A stretch of 42,238 nucleotides of DNA from a virus (Duplodnaviria; Heunggongvirae; Uroviricota; Caudoviricetes). A program made the position numbers and the translations under genes. Under the pieces are notes generated by a model, which saw nothing but the letters and a program-made list of their open reading frames with translations, was not told the DNA's origin and did no database searches. How positions within the stretch are numbered: the first letter of the stretch is position 1; each line of letters starts with the position of its first letter. The stretch is from the IMG/VR virus record IMGVR_UViG_2703718851_000004, positions 1-42,238 of that record, one strand, 5' to 3'. Shown piece after piece: positions 550 to 40,820 of the stretch.

Positions 550-912
550 ATGTTAAAACTATTTGCAAAGTACACCTCTATTGGCGTGCTGAACACCCTT
601 ATACACTGGGTGGTTTTTGGTGTATGTATCTATGCCGCGCATACCAATCAGGCTCTGGCAAACTTCGCAGGTTTTGTTGTGGCTGTGAGTTTTAGCTTCT
701 TCGCGAATGCAAAATTCACATTCAAAGCATCAACTACAACGATGCGCTACATGTTATATGTCGGGTTCATGGGAACACTGAGTGCTACTGTTGGATGGGC
801 TGCTGATAGATGTTCACTTCCTCCAATTGTCACTCTTGTCACCTTCTCCGCCATCAGCCTGGTGTGCGGTTTCGTCTATTCAAAGTTCATTGTCTTTAGG
901 GATGCGAAATGA
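550..912 (+). CDS. gtrA: GtrA-family bactoprenol-glucose flippase
   Basis: 120-aa hydrophobic ORF with GtrA-like sequence; first gene of three-gene cassette; stop overlaps gtrB start. Confidence 0.85.
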
Positions 913-1838
913 AGATATCTCTGGTCGTTCCTGTCTTCAATGAAGAAGAAGCGATACCAATTTTTTATAAAACGGTACGTGAATTCGAAGAATTGAAGTC
1001 ATATGAAGTGGAAATTGTTTTCATAAATGACGGCAGCAAAGACGCTACGGAGTCAATTATTAATGCTCTGGCTGTGGCCGATCCGCTTGTCGTTCCTCTT
1101 TCCTTCACCCGTAATTTCGGTAAAGAGCCCGCTCTGTTCGCCGGGCTTGACCACGCAACAGGTGATGCGGTTATCCCGATTGATGTTGACCTGCAGGACC
1201 CGATTGAAGTCATTCCTTATCTCATCGAGAAGTGGCAGGCAGGCGCTGACATGGTCCTGGCTAAGCGTTCTGATCGCTCCACCGACAGCAGACTAAAGCG
1301 CAAATCCGCTGAGTGGTTTTATAAGCTGCATAACAAAATAAGCAATCCGCAGATCGAGGAGAACGTCGGTGACTTCCGCCTGATGTCCCGTGCCGTGGTT
1401 GAGAACATCAAACTGTTGCCGGAGCGCAACCTCTTCATGAAGGGCGTTCTGAGTTGGGTTGGAGGGCGTACTGATGTTGTCGAGTATGCTCGCGCTGGGC
1501 GTGTCGCCGGAGACTCAAAATTCAATGGCTGGAAGCTCTGGAACTTGGCACTTGAGGGCATTACTAGCTTCTCAACCTTCCCTCTTCGCATGTGGACTTA
1601 TATTGGCCTGATGGTCGCCGGCCTGTCGTTTCTTTACGGCGCCTGGATGATTATCGACACGTTGGCTTTCGGTAATGCGGTACGTGGTTATCCTTCACTG
1701 TTAGTATCTATTTTGTTTCTGGGCGGAATCCAGTTAATAGGGATAGGTGTTCTTGGTGAGTACATCGGCAGAATTTACACTGAAGTTAAGCAGCGTCCTA
1801 GGTATATTTTGAAGGGCATTAAAAATGAAAAAAAATAA
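909..1838 (+). CDS. gtrB: GtrB bactoprenol glucosyltransferase (GT2 family)
   Basis: 309 aa; N-terminal GT2 motifs ([22 protein letters not shown]) and C-terminal TM helices. Confidence 0.88.
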
Positions 1839-3279
1839 TACTTATCACATCCCATTTATATTAATAGGGTTGTTTTATTTGCCATTCATCATAAACAATC
1901 AACTTTACGTTGATGATATTTTTAGGGCGCAGAATGGTTTTGATGGGTGGTCTCAAAACGGAAGGCCTTTAGCAGATTTGCTGATGCATCTGCTAATGAT
2001 ATCCTCATCCAAGTTACCTGGTTATGGAATATTTGGACAGGTATTATCAGTAGCAGTAATGTCAATGACAGCAATTTTCTATACTCGTCACATACTTGGT
2101 TCGACAAGCGTGGCAGCGTTAATTTGCGCGTCAGGCTTCGCGCTAAGTCCATTTTATATAGAAAACATGCTCTATCAGTACGATAACCTGCCAATGACGC
2201 TTTCACTTTGTGGTGCGGTTGTTGCTTCTGTCTACGCACTTAAAGAAGACAAAATCTACTTTATTGCATCTTTTATTATCATTGCTTTTAGCGCGGCTTT
2301 ATATCAGACATCAATAAATTCATACATAGCTCTTGTGGCAGTAAACTTAATTGTGAAATTAAAAAAATCTAATGACTGCGCAAAGGAAGTTATTATTTTA
2401 GCTTTAAAAGCAATGGCATCTCTCGCCATTGGCATGATTCTTTATTATTTTATAATAAAGGTTGCTTTCCCGATGACTGGAACAAGAGACCAGGCAATAT
2501 CGTTAGATGCGTCACTTATTGATTACTTTGTAAAAAGAATGGTTAGATTTTATACTTTATTAGAATCAAGTCTATCTATCTATTATGTGGCAATATATTT
2601 ATTGACTTTAGCGTTACTGGTAACAACAACCAAACCAAGAGTTTCGTTTTTAAATATCGCGATAATCATAATCTGTATTTCCGTGGTTGCCATATCACCA
2701 ATAGGAATGCTGGCGATTTTCGGTGAATCAGCCATTGCAGCGAGAATGATGATGGGGGCTGTAGGATTAACAGCTTTAATTTTCACCATGATATCCATAA
2801 GCGAAATTAGTAATAATAAAAAATATTTTGCAATCGCTGTCATCGCAATACCTTTATATGTAATTTCATATGGCTTTTCCTTTGCTATCAAAGAGCAGAG
2901 AATTTATGACAAGTCAATTTTATACCTGTCAATTAATGACATCAGAAATAGCTCAGATTACAATATAAATTCGTACATTGTATATTCTGGCAGGGCGCCA
3001 ATAGCTCCCTTATCGATAAATACTGTAAAAGCATATCCATTAATCTCTACAATGTTGGTTCCAACATATGATTGGACGTCTAGCATGGCTGCCCAGTCAA
3101 TCGACATCCCAAATGTAAAATTCAATTTTGCTAGAGAAGAACAGAAAAAGATAATATCCAATGTATGTGCATCTATAACCAAGCCAATAAAATCCACCAA
3201 TTCTTATTCGATATATTTCAACCAAGAAAACAATGGCTTTTTAATATGGTTAAAAGGAGGAGGCAACACCCCGTGCTGA
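1825..3279 (+). CDS. gtrC: GtrC-type serotype-specific O-antigen glucosyltransferase (polytopic membrane protein)
   Basis: 484-aa multi-TM ORF directly after gtrB, start overlaps gtrB stop; markedly AT-rich relative to flanks. Confidence 0.7.
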
Positions 3280-3312: not shown

Positions 3313-5472
3313 TTACGTCGAGTAGGTAAATGGCGGCTGCTCCTCCAGTGGAACAACTTTTAACCTATTAAGTGAGTAATATGCAGAGTTTCCGGTAAAG
3401 GTGAGAGTCAACACCCCCGTTGTTGAATTAAAGCTTGCAGATGGTGCTGGTATGGTAGATGTTCCAACTAAGCTTCTGCCTTGATATCCAGTAACGCTGC
3501 AAACATTACCCACCAAAACATTAAATCTTAAATCTTGCTGTAATGTTACAGCCACATTTTTCATTAGAAGCCTGCATGAGTATTCTCCCCCTGCCACACA
3601 ATTGCTTACCTGTATATCGAATGTGTTTGCTCCTTGAGCGATTGAAGGTGAACGCATGGTGTACACATCAAGAAGCCCTTTAAATTGGACTGTATAACCT
3701 CTCAACGGCGCTAAAGTATCAGCTATATTTTCTGTAATTGGATGCTCGCAATTTATTTTGATTCCATAACGCCCGAAGCCAAGATCTTTGGTAATCAATT
3801 TAAATGGTGATCCAATCTTCATGTCGTGAACATTGATCTGTGAGATATCAGTCTTGACTACCGCCCCACTTGACAGTGTGTTTCCAGATTGAACAGCAAA
3901 ATCTTTTATATCATGGTTGCAGAAAACACCGAACGTATTAATAGTTGACCCCACGCACTGACACCAAACTCGGTGACCAGTCTCGCTGGCGGCTACATTT
4001 ACACTCTCACTATAACCTCCGAAAACATTAACGTTACCACTATAAAAGAGGGCGAAATCTCGATTGTACCCCTCCCATGTTACTCCGTGCATATTTATGT
4101 CGACACAGTCGTGGGCATAGAGAAAAGTGGTGACATAGGCAATATTTGGTCTATTTGATACATCTCCGGATCTGTGGAACCATTGTGCCGTGCCTTTATC
4201 CCATGTTTGCGATAAATTACCAGTATAATATCCTCCTACCAAGTTTAGTGCCGTAGTGTGGGGTGTTAAAAATGTTGCATATTTAGCGCCTTGTGCAAAG
4301 CAATTCTCTACCGCAGTCCCCCAAGAACCACTTATCCAAAAGCTAACCTTACAGTCATACACTGCAACTCCAATCAGTTTGGCATCCGGAGTCCTCCAGA
4401 TTCTAATTCCCGCCTGCGTATCTGGACGGCCCAATAAAACAATATTCTCTATATATGGTCCATAATATCCAGCACTCAAATACAGCCCATTTTCCACACT
4501 GTTTGTCACTGTATATCTTGCAGTGCCGTCTGATAGCCATGGAGCGGTATCTAGAAGCAATTTATTTACATCCATGGACGTCATAGCAATAATAATTGAG
4601 CATCCTGCGCGTGAATATCTAAAGCCAGACGTTCCTCCCGTGCCAATTACCCTTACATTTGGAGAGAGATAAATAGTGTCATTAATGAAGTATTGAGCAG
4701 TTGGAAAAACAACATCCCCGCCTTGATGTGAGTCATATGAGGCATCAAGGTAAGGGTTTAGATATGAAATCGCAGCATTGATAGCTGGCGCGCAGTCGAA
4801 GGTACTATCGTTAATTTTTGCCCCAAACTCCAACGGACTCACCGTCCTTGCGACATACGCAGAGGATATCTCTCGCTTCCAGCGTCCTGTTCCAGTATTG
4901 CCAGTTGGGTTAATGGTATAGCCTCCGTCATCAGTATCAGTGCTGGTTGAATTCCAGCGGAAATATCCTCCGCCATAACCAGTTCCAAGGTGATAAGAAT
5001 CAACATAGACTCTTCCATTTTCCTTAACTGATGAGTATGCAGTAAATGCTCGTAGATCTGCTATTGATGAGAATGTACCAAATAATGCATAAGAATCAGG
5101 CGCAGACATCTTGGCAAGCCATTCTGCAGAAAACTGATCCGGGTCATACTTCAGCACATTAGGAAAATAGAACTGCTGCACACCGTATGCATCATAAACA
5201 GCCATCGAATGGCCTTGCACAGTTACGAACTTGGCAATCTGTCCGTTATATACCGGGTAACCAGCAGCGTTAATGATGATTGGTTGCGAAACAGGAACGT
5301 GAGATCCGTCTTCATTCTCTACATAAACCTGAATCTGGTTTTCAGTATTTACCGGGTCAGTGTCAATTTTTCCGATATAAATTTTGCCATTGGCTACGGC
5401 TTTAAAAGAACGAGCCATAGTGAAGAGTTGCGAAGGCATCGATACAATCACATTAGCTGTAATATCTGTCAT
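3313..5472 (-). CDS. Tailspike protein; P22-type N-terminal head-binding domain with divergent receptor-binding domain
   Basis: 719 aa; first ~110 residues match P22 gp9 head-binding domain from memory (MTDITANV...[11 protein letters not shown]...LKYDPDQ); last gene of virion module. Confidence 0.88.
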
Positions 5473-5530
5473 TTAATTTGCTCCAGATACAAGGAATCGC
5501 CGCAGCATGGCTACGGTGAATTTTGGGCAT

Positions 5531-5553
5531 AAAAAAACCCAGCCGAAGCTGGG
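5531..5553 (-). terminator. Intrinsic terminator (minus strand) upstream of tailspike gene
   Basis: Stem CCCAGC/GCTGGG with loop CGAA, followed on minus strand by TTTTTTT. Confidence 0.6.
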
Positions 5554-5605
5554 TCGTTGCGTTGGTTATCTGTCAGTAGTTATGTACTGGCTGAAGGATT
5601 TGTAC

Positions 5606-5636
5606 AAAAAACCCACCTGAAGGTGGGTTAATTTTT
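5606..5636. terminator. Bidirectional intrinsic terminator
   Basis: Stem CCCACC/GGTGGG with loop TGAA, flanked by A-run on one side and T-run on the other. Confidence 0.6.
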
Positions 5637-5719
5637 GCATTTACCTGGGCCATATTGACTACTTATAAAATGAGATCAATATTTAATCGCCCAATAACGG
5701 GTGTATGTTGAGGTATATC

Positions 5720-5899
5720 ATGGCGAAAAAACCAGGTGAAAACACAGGAAAAAACGGCGGAATATACCAAGAGGTTGGCCCACGCGGCGGTAAGAAAGAC
5801 AATTTTGCCACCGTCAAGGACAACGAAAGGCTTCCGCCAACAACAAAGCCAGGTCATGGCTGGGTATTGGATAAGCGAACTCCAGACAGCAAAAAGTAA
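5720..5899 (+). CDS. Small basic K/G-rich hypothetical protein (59 aa; alternative start 5705)
   Basis: ORF with GAGG RBS 8 nt upstream of ATG 5720; candidate TTGACT -35 at 5655..5660; terminator immediately downstream. Confidence 0.5.
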   Translation: MAKKPGENTGKNGGIYQEVGPRGGKKDNFATVKDNERLPPTTKPGHGWVLDKRTPDSKK

Positions 5900-5905
5900 T
5901 ACTCA

Positions 5906-5927
5906 AGCCGGGTCACTCCGGCTTTTT
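5906..5927 (+). terminator. Intrinsic terminator after small ORF
   Basis: Stem AGCCGG/CCGGCT with loop GTCACT followed by TTTTT; overlaps the stop of the convergent 5913..6278 gene. Confidence 0.55.
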
Positions 5928-6278
5928 GATATGTCGCTCGCAGAACTCAACAAGCCTGCTCATTAAGTAGCAGTAAGTCTCGTTGGCTCTTCCTGGTTCA
6001 ACATCAACACCTACCCTTGAGCAGATATCGAATGCCATGTGAGCACACTCATGGGCAATAGTAGATAGTTTGCCATTGAACACGCCTATCACATGCAAAA
6101 CACCATTCTCGCTGCTCATTGTATGAGACGCTCCGTTGGCATCCGAGTCCTGCACGTCCACACCAAGTTTTTGATGCAGGCGTTGCCATTCTGGAAAGTC
6201 TCTACAAAACACAATTGTACCGCTCTCAAAGAGCGGAACGAGCATCTTTGGTACGTTTCCAATGTTAACTTTTTTCAT
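5913..6278 (-). CDS. Hypothetical 121-aa protein with HExxH zinc-metallopeptidase motif (mini-zincin-like)
   Basis: ORF with AGGA RBS; motif [11 protein letters not shown] (H76-E77-x-x-H80) with glutamates 14-20 residues downstream. Confidence 0.55.
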
Positions 6279-6308
6279 GGTATCCTGCGTAAAACTAAGG
6301 AGGTTGGT

Positions 6309-6803
6309 GTGTCTGATTCTATGAGTTACGCTGTGCTAGTTGCCGCAACTCTATTTCTGGGGATAGGGTTGCAGATTGCGTGGTTCTTTTTTTCTAGTTT
6401 TATTAAACGTAAAAGAATTGAATCAAGGATATCTGAGATTTCTATTGCTATAGGGAAAAATGCTGAAAATCCAGAGAATGAGGCCTGCGCACTGAATTAC
6501 CTTAAAGAAAAGTTTTCCCCTGAAAAATTTGAAAACAGAATTACTGATGCTCTTGGATTGGTAATATCAGTAATTCATATGCCACTAAGTTTACTGATAA
6601 CAGTGTGGTACTTCGCCATGATCGCCGGAAGAATATTTGGTTTCATGAATATAGATCCTGTAGTTCTTTGGGTTCCAATGATACTGCAATTGTTGTTAAG
6701 CGTTGCTATCTTTATTTTTTCTGTTTTTATAAAAATTGTCTTTGGAAGATACCCCGGAGAAGCGAAGGGATTTAATAAAGAATTCATAAAAACTATAAAA
6801 TAA
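6309..6803 (+). CDS. Hypothetical AT-rich integral membrane protein (about 4 TM segments); start GTG 6309 or ATG 6321
   Basis: AAGGAGG RBS at 6296..6302; four long hydrophobic stretches; AT-rich; divergent from the HExxH gene. The 6093 upstream extension of the ORF is judged non-coding. Confidence 0.6.
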
Positions 6804-6825
6804 ATGCCGTCCCTGGCTTACAGTG

Positions 6826-8700
6826 CTACTGCCGGGTAGCTTCGTTAACTAAGAGCGGGCGCACGGCAGTAGCCGCCTGATTTAGCGCTCTTTCATAGGC
6901 TGGTGTTCCTGCTTTGGTGTTTGCCAAGCGTAAGAGAGCATTCCTTGCTGCTTTGGATTCATACAAGCGCATCATTGCACCGAAACCAGCCTCAAGCCCC
7001 ATTGATACGCCAAGAGTCGCAGTTGCGCCAATCGTCCTTATCCTGTTGGCTTGCGATTGCCCCGTCTGAGTTACTACATTTGCGGTGTCTGACCTTGCTG
7101 TTTGCTGTAGAACTTCATGAAGAGCATCAAGTTCTTTCATGTGCTTTCCAGAAAAAATAGTGTTGTAAATTTCACCGCCTGACTGAGATTTCAGCTTATT
7201 AACTTCAGTGATGAACTTGGCTGGAGAGTCACCTGCCTTTTCCGCTATTTTGCTGACGTAAGCTGCACGCATAGCATCTTTCCCTTTATCATCCAATGCG
7301 CTCCAGATTCGTTTCACGTCAGATGGTTTTCTACTTAATACAACGGTATTTATAAGTTCAGGACTGGCTTCACTGCTTGCCTTGTTGAGCTTGTTAGCAA
7401 TGTTTTTATTAAGCACCTTATTATAAACGTTTGCATAATCGGAATTTGCTTTAAGGTATTTTGCTGCGTCTGATGCACCTAGGTTTTTAGCAACTGCGTT
7501 ACGAAGGTCTTTTGACATTGCATTCTCTACCATATTGGTAGCTGCTTTTGCCTGGTTGGGGAAGACCATAGCATCTCCCTGAACATTAGATCTAAATGCT
7601 GTTCTGTGCTGGCGCAAGAGATCAAACGTAACATCCAAATCAGTTGCAGGGTTTGCTAATTCTTCACGTAGGTTACGCAAGGATGTAAGCAGGCTTTGAT
7701 TGGCAGACGTCCCAAGCCGTTCCTGTCTTGCGATCGCTGTATTCAGAGCATTCATGGTATTTGTGGTATCAACTGCGGCATTACCCATTTTATTGGTGAC
7801 GTCATTGATAACAGCGCCAGCGGCATCCTTCCGCCCCCTTAACGTGGTGGTCAGAGATTTCACCACATCATCAGGGTTGTACTCACCAAAACGGTCAAAA
7901 TAATTGCTTACCAGCTTACTACGCGTTGCATATTGCTCCGCTCTCTTTGAGCCTGTCCCGAGCAAAGCCCCCTCGGCATCCTGAGTAAGGCCGCGAGTGA
8001 AAGCATTTTTCGGCGGGATAACATCAGATGTCATTGGTGTCACGCCCATCGATTCTGATGTGGCAATTTTCTTCGCCACTTCTGGCGCAATATCACCTTT
8101 TATAGCCGTTATTCCACGCCCTATTCCCTTTGCTGCTGCGGAAAGAACCCCCTGAGCGGCAAGGTTAACTCCGGCATTTTTAGCTGCATTTTGTGCGAAA
8201 TCGCCTTTCTGATTTGCGGCCTCTGCCAGTGATCCAATAGCCATGCTTCCTGCCGTTCCAACTCCTGGAACTAAATACCCACCAATTGTTTCACCGGCTT
8301 GCGCGTAGGGGTCTGTCGGTCTGTCTACTGGACGATAAACATCATCCAAAACCTTGGGTCCACCAAGCCCCTGACTGATTGCATTAATCAGACTTGCGCC
8401 ACCCTGCAATACGTCAAATGGTATGTTTACCAGACCACGACCAGCCTGTTCTGCAATTTGCCCTGCACTTTGACCACCAGTGAGCCAATCGCCAGCTTGT
8501 TGCATCAATGATGGTTCTTCTTTCTGCTGCTGAGTCGGAGGGTATGCTGCATAAAACTGATCTCTTGCTTCAGCCCATTTGTCACCAGCCTTAGGGGCAA
8601 CAACCTCATCAAAATATTGCGCTTGAGCCTGTGCTTTCTGTTCTTCAGTTAACGCCTGATACTGTGGAGAGGCGATAACATCTTTCCATGCTTTAGCCAT
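6826..8700 (-). CDS. Ejection (injection) protein, P22 gp16-like
   Basis: 624 aa; last of three ejection-protein genes in P22-type order (7, 20, 16). Confidence 0.75.
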
Positions 8701-10088
8701 TAATCACCCCATAGTGAAGAAAAGTTACTGCTGGCTGCTGGCTGTGATACCTGTGCAGGTTGAGATTGCTGCCGCTGAGATTTACCAACATTAACGTTAT
8801 ATTGTTGGTTGTAATTGTTGGTGTATTCCTGAATCTCACGAATCGACTGCTGCATAGCCTCCGGGCTTGAATAGTCAACCTGCGGCATCCCCTGAAAATA
8901 CATCTTCGCTTCTGCAACGGTGTTAATACCACTGGCACCCATGTCCCTTGCTGCCGCCACACCCTGATTCTGCATTCTGCCCTGAATACGTTGTGCTGAG
9001 TTATATAACTGGCGCTGCTCTTTTCCTGTTAATCGGCTGCGAACATCAGCACCAATTGCTGGATTACCTGCACCGCCTGTCATTCCTGTCATGAAATCGA
9101 GAGCAGAAGCGTCTGCATTTGCGATCGCGTCGATATCCTTCTTCATGGCATAGTTTTGTGCTGATGCAGACGATGTTGCAGGCGCTGCGATTGAACTGGC
9201 AGGAACGCGAACCATATTCCCCTCGTTGTCGATGCCTTCGTAGAACGCATTAGCCCCAGCGCCGTGAAGCTTCCCGCCTACCGTTACAGTTCTGCCATCT
9301 GATAACTGAACTGTACGCTCATCATTCCCAGCGATTCGTCTTGTTGACGCTCGCTGCATTGCCAAATCCTGACCTCGTCGCGCAGTAGAAGCAGATAAGT
9401 CCTGACCGCGCATCGTGATGTTCTGACCTCGTGATGTTAGTGCCTCTCCTGCCTGATTGCTGCGGATTGTCTCTGCCAGTCTGCCTCGGTCAATCTCACG
9501 ACCAGCCATCTTGTCCTGAACATTGAAGTAATCAATCGGACCAAGAGCAGCCATTCCAAGGTGATCAACAAACTCACCAAATCCTGAAGGGTTCTGCTGA
9601 TACATCTGAGCAACGCTGTTAGGGTCAACACCGACGCGAGTCAGTTCCTTGGCGTTGTTTTGCAGCCATGATTGCATTGCTTCTGGAGACGATGACGCAA
9701 GGCGTGCACCAGCCGCTAAGGTGCCGATAGAATTACGCTGGTCTTCATCAATGAATCCCATGCCTTTACGAACGGATTCAATCTGGTCTGGATATTGAGT
9801 AGCCAACTGACGCAAAGCACCGCGATCACCAGACGCATAAGCATTAGCGTACGCCTGCTGAAATTCTTTCTGCCGCTGAGCCTGCTTTTCCTGCTGAAAC
9901 ACCCCCGCAATACCTGAAAGGCCTTGCAAAGCAGTCAGCCCAACATTGTTAGCGCCTGAACGCTCAATATCATTGTTCTGCCTGATAAGCTGAAGCGTAT
10001 TGCCGATGTCATTTACGCTCGGAGCGTTTGAGTTGACGCCGCCGATACCAGCCAACAATCCGCCGTTTGTTCCTTGCCAAGTAGCCAT
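8700..10088 (-). CDS. Ejection protein, P22 gp20-like
   Basis: 462 aa; synteny between gp7-like and gp16-like genes. Confidence 0.75.
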
Positions 10089-22714: not shown

Positions 22715-22790
22715 TGGTGCTGGTTAACGGACTTGAACCGCTACCCATTCGCTTACAAGGCGACTGCTCTACCATTGGAGCTAAACCAGC
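22715..22790 (-). tRNA. tRNA-Thr (anticodon UGU)
   Basis: 76-nt cloverleaf: 7-bp acceptor GCTGGTT/AACCAGC, D-stem GCTC/GAGC, anticodon loop CTTGTAA, T-loop TTCAAGT, encoded CCA; one G-A mismatch at top of anticodon stem. Confidence 0.65.
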
Positions 22791-22795
22791 ATGTT

Positions 22796-22869
22796 TGGCG
22801 GGACAGCGTGGACTCGAACCACGATAAGAAGTTAACAGCCTTCCGTAATGACCTTTATACGACTGACCC
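22796..22869 (-). tRNA. tRNA-like element with Asn-type anticodon loop (possibly degenerate)
   Basis: T-arm CGTGG-TTCGAGT-CCACG, encoded CCA, loop CTGTTAA (GUU); but T-T mismatch in acceptor stem, weak anticodon stem and 3-nt variable region. Confidence 0.35.
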
Positions 22870-33457: not shown

Positions 33458-33498
33458 TGGTGGCCTTTATTTTTGGCATAAACAACAGAATAAACACT

Positions 33499-33536
33499 GC
33501 TCCGTGTATTCATTCCAACGAGTGAATACACGGAGC
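33499..33536. repeat. Perfect 14-bp inverted repeat with 10-nt loop
   Basis: GCTCCGTGTATTCA ... TGAATACACGGAGC; no clean T-run on either side. Confidence 0.8.
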
Positions 33537-33633
33537 AATGTCGCTCGTAACTAAACAGGAGCCGACTTGTTCTGATTATTGGAAATCTTCTTTGCCCTCC
33601 AGTGTGAGGGCAATTTTTTTTGATGGAGGATAT

Positions 33634-34602
33634 ATGAGTGAAGTAACAGATTTAGTTGTTATTGAAAAAGCAAATGCAATGACTGTATTTCAGTCTGCCG
33701 ACCAGATTGAAGAAATTCTCCAAAAGGTTGAACGTGAAGTTATGTCCTTTGTGCCTGATATCACAACGGCAAAGGGCAGAAAGGAGATCGCTTCTCTGGC
33801 GTATAAAGTTGCGCAGACGAAAACATATCTCGATGGTCTTGGCAAAGACCTTGTTGCTGAACTGAAGGAAATTCCAAAGCTAATTGATGCCAACCGCAAG
33901 ACAGTGCGCGATCGCCTTGATGAACTGAAAGCCAAGGCGCGCCAGCCTCTTACTGATTATGAGGAGGAACAGGCACGGATTAAAGCCGAAGAAGAAGCTA
34001 AGGCAGCAGCTGAAGCTCTCGCAAAGCAAATTGAGTCTGACCATGAAATAGCGATTTTGATGGATCGCGAATTTGACCGCAAAAGAGAAGAGGCAAGACT
34101 CAAAGTGGAGCAGGAAAAGCGAGAGCATGAAGAACGCTTAAAAAGAGAAGCTGAAGAGAAAGCCAGAGCAGAAGCCGAAGCAAAGGCAAAAGCCGAAATT
34201 GAAGCAGCAGCAAGGCGAGAAGCAGAAGCTAAGGCAGCAGCGGAACGTGCAGAGCGTGAACGCATTGAAGCCGAGCAACGAGCACAGCGCGAAGCAAAAG
34301 AGGCAGCAGAACGAGCTGAAAGAGAAAAGCAGGCGGCAATTGAAGCAGAACGCCGAAAAGCACAGGAGGAGGCTGAACGAATCCGGCGCGAGGCTGAAGC
34401 AAAAGAGCAAGCCAGAATAGCAGAAGAAAAAAGAATCAAGGAAGAAGAAGAGCGTAGAGCAAAGGATAAAGCTCACCGGAAAGAAGTAAATAACAAAATA
34501 CTTGCTGACCTTATCAAGGTTGGTGCATCAGAAGATGTTGCTAAAAATATCATAACAGCCATCGTAAAAGGCGAAGTATTCGCAACAAAAATAACCTACT
34601 AA
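33634..34602 (+). CDS. Hypothetical protein with long A/E/K/R-rich coiled-coil segment
   Basis: GGAGGA RBS before ATG 33634; central ~170 aa of repetitive EAKA/ERAE-type sequence. Confidence 0.7.
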   Translation: MSEVTDLVVIEKANAMTVFQSADQIEEILQKVEREVMSFVPDITTAKGRKEIASLAYKVAQTKTYLDGLGKDLVAELKEIPKLIDANRKTVRDRLDELKAKARQPLTDYEEEQARIKAEEEAKAAAEALAKQIESDHEIAILMDREFDRKREEARLKVEQEKREHEERLKREAEEKARAEAEAKAKAEIEAAARREAEAKAAAERAERERIEAEQRAQREAKEAAERAEREKQAAIEAERRKAQEEAERIRREAEAKEQARIAEEKRIKEEEERRAKDKAHRKEVNNKILADLIKVGASEDVAKNIITAIVKGEVFATKITY

Positions 34603-39553: not shown

Positions 39554-39772
39554 ATGTACTTGACACTTCAGGAGTGGAACGCTCGCCAGCGACGTCCAAG
39601 AAGCCTTGAAACAGTTCGTCGATGGGTACGCGAATGCAGGATATTCCCTCCTCCGGTTAAGGATGGAAGAGAGTATCTGTTCCACGAATCAGCGGTAAAG
39701 GTTGACTTAAATCGACCAGTAACAGGTAGCCTTTTGAAGAGGATCAGAAATGGGAAGAAGGCGAAGTCATGA
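39554..39772 (+). CDS. xis: Excisionase Xis
   Basis: 72 aa MYLTLQEWNARQRRPRSLETVRRWVRECRIFPPPVKDGREYLFHESAV..., matches lambda Xis from memory; overlaps int start. Confidence 0.95.
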   Translation: MYLTLQEWNARQRRPRSLETVRRWVRECRIFPPPVKDGREYLFHESAVKVDLNRPVTGSLLKRIRNGKKAKS

Positions 39773-40820
39773 GCGCCGGGATTTACCCCCTAACCTTTAT
39801 ATAAGAAACAATGGATATTACTGCTACAGGGACCCAAGGACTGGTAAAGAGTTCGGATTAGGCAGAGACAGGAGGATAGCAATTACTGAAGCAATACAGG
39901 CAAACATTGAGTTATTTTCAGGACACAAACACAAGCCTCTGACAGCGAGAATCAACAGTGATAATTCTGTTACGTTACATTCATGGCTTGATCGCTACGA
40001 AAAAATCCTCGCCAGCAGAGGAATCAAGCAGAAGACACTCATAAATTACATGAGCAAAATTAAAGCAATAAGGAGGTGCCTGCCTGATGCTCCACTTGAA
40101 GACATCACCACAAAAGAAATTGCGGCAATGCTCAATGGATACATAGACGAGGGCAAGGCGGCGTCAGCCAAGTTAATCAGATCAACACTGAGCGATGCAT
40201 TCCGAGAGGCAATAGCTGAAGGCCATATAACAACAAACCCGGTCGCTGCCACTCGCGCAGCAAAATCAGAGGTAAGGAGATCAAGACTTACAGCTGACGA
40301 ATACCTGAAAATTTATCAAGCAGCAGAATCATCACCATGTTGGCTCAGACTTGCAATGGAACTGGCTGTTGTTACCGGGCAGCGAGTTGGTGATTTATGC
40401 GAAATGAAGTGGTCTGATATCGTAGATGGATATCTTTATGTCGAGCAAAGCAAAACAGGCGTAAAAATTGCCATCCCTACAACATTGCATGTTGATGCTC
40501 TCGGGATATCAATGAAGGAAACACTTGATAAATGCAAAGAGATTCTTGGCGGAGAAACCATAATTGCATCTACTCGTCGTGAACCGCTTTCATCCGGCAC
40601 AGTATCAAGGTATTTTATGCGCGCACGAAAAGCATCAGGTCTTTCCTTCGAAGGGGATCCGCCAACCTTTCACGAGTTGCGCAGTTTGTCTGCAAGACTC
40701 TATGAGAAGCAGATAAGCGATAAGTTTGCTCAACATCTTCTCGGGCATAAGTCGGACACCATGGCATCACAGTATCGTGATGACAGAGGCAGGGAGTGGG
40801 ACAAAATTGAAATCAAATAA
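39750..40820 (+). CDS. int: Tyrosine integrase Int
   Basis: 356 aa, near-identical to lambda Int from memory (MGRRRSHERRDLPPNLYIRNNGYYCYRDPRTGKEF...). Confidence 0.97.
   Translation: MGRRRSHERRDLPPNLYIRNNGYYCYRDPRTGKEFGLGRDRRIAITEAIQANIELFSGHKHKPLTARINSDNSVTLHSWLDRYEKILASRGIKQKTLINYMSKIKAIRRCLPDAPLEDITTKEIAAMLNGYIDEGKAASAKLIRSTLSDAFREAIAEGHITTNPVAATRAAKSEVRRSRLTADEYLKIYQAAESSPCWLRLAMELAVVTGQRVGDLCEMKWSDIVDGYLYVEQSKTGVKIAIPTTLHVDALGISMKETLDKCKEILGGETIIASTRREPLSSGTVSRYFMRARKASGLSFEGDPPTFHELRSLSARLYEKQISDKFAQHLLGHKSDTMASQYRDDRGREWDKIEIK

Follow-up and report, generated by a model that had tools for sequence, protein, structure and literature searches.

The window analysed here, a 42,238-nucleotide stretch of tailed-phage DNA (IMG/VR record IMGVR_UViG_2703718851_000004), carries a short, AT-rich open reading frame encoded against the late operon, and this locus raises the question of whether the gene belongs to a known system of superinfection exclusion. 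The initial annotation had noted that P22 encodes the membrane exclusion protein SieA at this genomic position, and had left homology undecided. Identity to P22 SieA along the whole protein, the match to PHROG 7745, the family motif, the genomic position and the conserved promoter PsieA together make that homology unambiguous. We conclude with high confidence that the reading frame is a type A sieA, the superinfection-exclusion gene known from P22-like phages, and that it resides in a P22-like prophage of E. coli at att-lambda. Type A of the SieA family is already known, in E. coli too, and the gain is mainly one of reliable annotation, with an E. coli allele added to a family that has already been surveyed in E. 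coli prophages.

Identity of the gene

The features on which the assignment depends are the following.

6309..6803, plus strand: coding sequence assigned to sieA (type A SieA), 164 aa with a GTG start, from the open reading frame and its translation and from matches to P22 SieA and PHROG 7745
6741..6779 (codons 145-157), plus strand: SieA family motif FxRYPxEAxxFNK, read in the translation and placed in the cytoplasm by prediction
6804..6825: convergent gap between the stops of sieA and gene 16, 22 bp, identical to P22 at 19 of 22 positions
6826..8700, minus strand: gene 16 ejection protein, 624 aa, 77% identical to P22 gp16 over residues 64-624
3313..5472, minus strand: tailspike (gene 9 homologue), with a body that differs from that of P22

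Direct comparison of the window protein with P22 SieA gives 151 identical residues out of 164 (92%) and 160/164 positives, with no gaps and an E-value of 7e-114. The curated P22 record BK000583 (BK000583.1 13336..13830) describes sieA as a 495-nt CDS with a GTG start and a sieA promoter upstream; length, start and Shine-Dalgarno sequence are the same in the window gene, and in P22 as well the gene 16 stop lies 22 bp beyond the end of sieA. When positions 5500-7000 of the window were compared with phage records by megablast, 78 records matched. P22 DNA is 95.9% identical over window positions 5590-6926, the feature that covers the reading frame there being ‘sieA: superinfection exclusion protein’, and the DNA of the gene itself is 95.6% identical in 41 phage records annotated as sieA or superinfection exclusion. 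All 41 records in the phage collection with this sieA are Salmonella phages. The window and P22 genes differ at 22 bases; of the resulting codon differences 13 are nonsynonymous and 9 synonymous, and the 13 amino acid substitutions are mostly conservative.

The evidence from the wider family agrees with the pairwise comparison. PHROG 7745, ‘superinfection exclusion SieA-like’, is spanned end to end (residues 1-164 of 164, E 1.7e-108), and all 49 invariant columns of the family alignment are retained in the window protein. Among the invariant residues are F145, G146, R147, Y148, P149, E151, A152, F155, N156 and K157, which lie within the FxRYPxEAxxFNK motif (P22 residues 145-157) that has been described as the hallmark common to the three SieA types (Leavitt et al. 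2024, mBio, PMC10883804). Database relatives from Yersinia and Serratia are assigned to PF26849 and go under the name ‘superinfection exclusion protein A’. Searches of Pfam-A, NCBIfam and PADLOC returned no SieA model matching the window protein, so that family support comes from PHROGs, from the precomputed PF26849 assignments and from direct comparison. Weak library matches to Kri1, DUF6161, DUF485 and SLATT_5 fell well short of the respective cut-offs, and we discarded them.

Position tells the same story, as the gene sits between the gene 16 homologue and the tailspike, opposite the late operon. The initial annotation had placed it on the strand opposite gp16 and the late transcript, and we find the same arrangement, with sieA on the plus strand and gene 16 on the minus strand converging on the 22-bp gap. 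The likeness to P22 SieA (type A; Hofer et al. 1995; Leavitt et al. 2024) takes in length, start codon, Shine-Dalgarno sequence, promoter sequence, three predicted transmembrane (TM) helices, motif and antisense site. Because the window protein has no N-terminal extension and is 92% identical to the P22 protein, we assign it to type A; judged from its sequence, it appears to have every feature of type A SieA that can be checked in silico.

Start codon, promoter and base composition

Three further features lie at or just upstream of the start of the gene.

6297..6303, plus strand: Shine-Dalgarno sequence AAGGAGG, 5 nt before the GTG of sieA, identical in P22
6248..6278, plus strand: putative promoter PsieA, homologous to the 31 nt annotated in P22 BK000583 and identical at 31/31 positions
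5913..6278, minus strand: 121-aa open reading frame (orf121), matching PHROG 1365 (E 1.4e-39), 98-100% identical to P22 in nucleotides, and called ‘hypothetical’ in E. coli RefSeq entries

Open reading frame calling and translation give 164 codons from the GTG followed by a TAA stop, and an alternative ATG at 6321 would give a product of 160 aa. The MSDS N-terminus encoded from the GTG is kept in an alignment of SieA homologues that are 55-83% identical, which supports the GTG as the start. The 85 bp upstream of the gene match P22 at 83 of 85 positions, the mismatches being at 6289-6290, and in P22 this length of upstream DNA is enough for sieA expression (PMC10883804). A simple generic sigma-70 scan of the region did not call PsieA, which overlaps the first codons of the 121-aa reading frame on the opposite strand.

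A longer gene is conceivable on paper, since the frame is open from 6093 and an ATG there would give a 236-aa product (6093..6803), and some database entries have 188-209 aa. Such an extension would run antisense through the conserved 121-aa reading frame, and it has no Shine-Dalgarno sequence. The Yersinia and Serratia homologues are 164-165 aa long and begin with MSDS, and full activity is seen with a P22 construct in which just 85 bp precede sieA (PMC10883804). The homologue lengths and the activity of that construct led us to reject the start at 6093, to which we assign next to no probability.

The initial annotation had described the gene as strongly AT-rich and horizontally acquired. Its GC content is 0.349, against a mean of 0.468 for the window (sd 0.040, 495-nt windows) and 0.475, 0.506 and 0.462 for the neighbouring genes for gp16, gp20 and orf121, and its GC3 is 0.309. 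Only 1.4% of 495-nt windows are as low in GC, and all the others lie within gtrC (~2150-2800). Low GC, a putative promoter of its own and a patchy distribution, with sieA present in only 22 of 66 P22-like phages (PMC10883804), fit the reading of sieA as a horizontally acquired moron. The gtrC region, which has a GC content of 0.32-0.34 and is alone in the window in matching the AT-richness of sieA, belongs to a gtrA/gtrB/gtrC-like O-antigen glucosylation cassette (550..3279, plus strand; PF04138, PF00535, PF14264), which is a second lysogenic-conversion module in the window.

Prophage setting and occurrence in E. coli

In its backbone the window most resembles the E. coli and Shigella P22-like phages vB_EcoP-683R2, HK620, HF4s and Sf6 (96-97%), and it also holds a CI-like repressor, CII, N and Erf. 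E. coli ybhC is found at the right end at 100% identity. Together with the integrase listed below, these P22-like phage genes and ybhC identify the window as a prophage at att-lambda.

39750..40820: lambda-type integrase, a prophage marker
5705..5899, plus strand: orf59a homologue, a 64-aa open reading frame matching PHROG 3202 (E 1.3e-31)
5905-5924: terminator-like hairpin after the orf59a homologue, the ‘mnt terminator’ of P22

In several respects the setting is unlike that of P22. The host is E. coli, not Salmonella; the mnt, arc and ant genes do not flank the locus; the tailspike body is different; and the ejection proteins are divergent, gp16 at 77% and gp20 at 69% identity. The P22 immI region is absent at window positions 5473..5704, and homology to P22 resumes within the last ~30 bp of mnt (~5590). 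Related E. coli prophages retain an Arc-family (mnt-like) gene at the immI site. A perfect 8-bp hairpin at 5610-5629 has T-runs on both strands and looks like a bidirectional terminator, and a second terminator-like hairpin lies just upstream of the tailspike start (5555-5536, minus strand). Elsewhere in the window, two adjacent phage-borne tRNA genes, tRNA-Thr (TGT) and tRNA-Asn (GTT), occupy 22715..22869 on the minus strand.

Among 5426 complete E. coli genomes, 35 have the sieA allele at 98-100% identity, and the copy in strain LSC52 is identical. PGAP has given the name ‘superinfection exclusion protein A’ to several E. coli copies of the same length, and many RefSeq copies are ‘hypothetical protein’. 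According to earlier work, sieA of type A or type B is present in E. coli prophages, where the homologues of genes 16 and 9 always flank it (PMC10883804).

The loss of immI bears on whether the gene still works. Since mnt, arc and ant have already gone from this prophage, apart from the end of mnt, sieA might be a decaying or neutralised relic within the variable stretch that separates gene 16 from gene 9, its reading frame intact and its exclusion function lost. Nonsynonymous differences from P22 outnumber synonymous ones in sieA (13 of the 22 differing codons), which would allow for relaxed constraint, while the adjacent orf121 is nearly unchanged. Against this, the reading frame is of full length with no frameshift or internal stop, the promoter and Shine-Dalgarno sequence are intact, all the invariant residues and the motif are kept, the substitutions are conservative (160/164 positives), and the allele is maintained at near identity across the 35 E. 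coli genomes. Moreover, exclusion of the same phages persists in SieA proteins with an identity of just 24% (PMC10883804). We therefore regard a relic as very unlikely, and continue with the reading of an intact type A sieA.

Predicted membrane topology and structure

The initial annotation had counted four TM segments, a number that we would revise. A Kyte-Doolittle profile shows three hydrophobic blocks, at residues ~6-32, 79-113 and 117-146. An AlphaFold2 model (pLDDT 79.9, pTM 0.63) contains continuous helices at 2-52, 55-68, 74-110, 117-145 and 151-163, of which 2-52, 74-110 and 117-145 would span the membrane. Both methods thus give three spans, which is also the TMHMM prediction for P22 SieA (PMC10883804).

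Basic residues are clustered, with ten K/R in the loop at 33-78 and five in the C-terminal tail, and by the positive-inside rule both segments would be cytoplasmic, in agreement with the published placement of the motif. The N-terminus and the 107-117 loop are accordingly predicted to face the periplasm, and the 33-78 loop and C-terminal helix the cytoplasm. The AlphaFold2 model found no close structural relative by Foldseek, where the best matches had E-values of 2.4 (BFVD) and 7.0 (PDB), and a sequence-profile search of the PDB gave a best E-value of 0.2.

Probable exclusion function

P22 SieA is already characterised, and alone is sufficient to block DNA injection by P22-like phages through the conduit formed by gp16 and gp20 (PMC10883804). 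A single chromosomal copy of P22 sieA with its own promoter lowers plating of P22 at least 10^7-fold and lysogenisation 10^5-fold, and the K+ release that goes with entry of the DNA is prevented by the protein (PMC10883804). It is found only in the inner membrane, and affects neither growth nor the phage yield after induction; transcription of the gene is low in the lysogen and rises on induction (PMC10883804). SieA acts on P22-like phages only and works in E. coli, where CUS-3 is excluded and HK620 weakly so (PMC10883804). Given the similarity described above, we infer that the window allele is expressed and active like the P22 protein.

In the mechanism that we propose by analogy, sieA would be transcribed in the lysogen from its own promoter, against the late operon, and the 164-aa protein would insert into the inner membrane with its three TM helices. 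On adsorption of another P22-like phage, SieA would disturb how the trans-envelope conduit made of ejected gp7, gp20 and gp16 is put together or works. The incoming DNA would then never enter the cytoplasm, allowing the cell to survive and the prophage to keep its host. The conduit might be blocked by direct contact with SieA or, in an alternative model, by occlusion of a host factor such as YajC.

Ejection proteins, the genetic targets of SieA in P22

The resident phage encodes its own versions of the two proteins on which escape from SieA depends, gene 16 as given above and gene 20 next to it.

8700..10088, minus strand: gene 20 ejection protein, 462 aa, 69% identical to P22 gp20

In P22, gp16 forms the inner-membrane end of the DNA conduit and gp20 its periplasmic part, and they are the two genetic targets of SieA; escape needs changes in gp16 (G532W, P546S) and gp20 (T338I, T341I, A348T, G350D) (PMC10883804). 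The first ~60 residues of the window gp16 are unrelated to P22 and resemble HK620. Further along, identity to P22 drops to 50-57% at P22 residues 526-570 (codons ~541-585 of the window gene), between flanks of 87-93%. This patch holds both escape positions, of which G532 is kept (as G547) and P546 is replaced by alanine (Ala561). The window gp20 has a single substitution in the stretch aligned to P22 residues 310-439, and T338, T341, A348 and G350 are all kept.

The 13 substitutions in SieA, alongside a divergent gp16 patch in which P546 has become alanine, could record an ongoing arms race between SieA and the ejection proteins, giving a shifted exclusion spectrum or a resident phage that partly escapes SieA. 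We consider this unlikely on present evidence. If it were true, natural variants would be at hand for mapping the contact between SieA and gp16. The natural variation of gp16 at a SieA-escape site is in any event a small lead for mapping how SieA interacts with the conduit.

Related systems and the wider family

To our knowledge, no system other than SieA has been characterised that prevents short-tailed phages from injecting their DNA. HK97 gp15, T4 Imm, Tuc2009 Sie2009 and TP-J34 Ltp share with it the logic of a small envelope protein, encoded by a prophage or phage, that keeps DNA from entering once adsorption has taken place, but these proteins either target long-tailed phages by way of the tape-measure protein or are lipoproteins. 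The window protein shows no similarity to other injection-blocking or defence proteins in Foldseek searches of BFVD and PDB (nothing below E = 2) or in PADLOC (no match).

Within the SieA family, types B (E. coli prophage HS1, EcHS_A0321) and C (Providencia, Proteus and Morganella) occupy the same genomic position as the window gene and have the same motif (PMC10883804). Types B and C are ~25% identical, and carry an N-terminal extension of 30-40 residues with an extra TM helix, making four, which the window SieA lacks (PMC10883804). The same exclusion spectrum has been shown for type B SieA (PMC10883804).

A profile search with type A SieA returned 85 clusters at E <= 1e-3, mostly of 160-180 aa, and 12 of the 84 profile matches that were checked have an [FL]xR[YFW]PxE (GRYPGEA-like) motif near residue 145. 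Two matches are fused to other domains, one to a trypsin-like/HtrA protease (P0049, 617 aa) and one to DnaJ (P0032, 337 aa), and neither has the motif. The profile matches suggest that a wider family of SieA-like membrane domains exists outside P22-like prophages.

Such fusions to protease and DnaJ domains in distant relatives would suit a protein with the SieA fold whose main role in E. coli lies elsewhere, for instance as an effector of abortive infection or pore formation, or as a holin-like protein. The window protein is indeed a small helical membrane protein, with a weak NCBIfam match to SLATT_5 (E 0.071). With 12.6 bits this match falls short of the cut-off of 60, and it spans just 19 TM residues, distant SieA-like proteins likewise have no SLATT match, and PADLOC returned nothing for the window protein at E <= 0.1. 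We give such a role even less credence than decay of the gene, and retain superinfection exclusion as the probable function of the window SieA.

Inverted repeats at the sieA-gene 16 junction and elsewhere

The initial annotation had drawn attention to an inverted repeat where sieA and gene 16 converge.

6825-6834 and 6864-6873: 10-bp inverted repeat with a 29-nt loop (GCTACTGCCG / CGGCAGTAGC), the arms matching exactly

The arms do match exactly and, as had been reported, the repeat overlaps the gene 16 stop, which it does with its left arm. Nearly the whole of the structure lies within the final 16 codons of that gene. A functional element is another matter, as repeats of this kind occur near chance level and no terminator accompanies it. 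Six distinct hairpin-type repeats of at least 10 nt (15 seeds) were found across the window, compared with a mean of ~3 seeds in first-order Markov simulations, and roughly half of the six would be expected by chance. Folding of the 6825-6873 region is no better than that of shuffled sequences (z -0.70 and +0.29 on the two strands), and the P22 counterpart folds differently. No T-run follows the repeat on either strand, and no intrinsic terminator was called downstream of sieA. An ectopic P22 sieA construct with full exclusion carried only 22 bp past the sieA stop (PMC10883804), which means that the repeat is absent from the DNA sufficient for SieA function. On the strength of its frequency, the z-scores, the missing T-run, the different fold of the P22 counterpart and the lack of the repeat in the functional construct, we rejected the repeat as a bidirectional terminator or regulatory hairpin, and we judge it to be incidental. 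An Rfam search of the region likewise returned no RNA family and no sar-like antisense RNA.

Two other inverted repeats may be recorded here. Within sieA, at codons ~77-90, lies a perfect 11-nt inverted repeat with a 17-nt loop (6538-6548 / 6566-6576; GAATTACTGAT / ATCAGTAATTC), both arms of which are the same in P22. The start of a 354-aa open reading frame that has no Pfam match (33538..34602, plus strand) is overlapped by the longest inverted repeat of the window, at 33494-33541, with 22-nt arms that are 91% complementary and a 4-nt loop.
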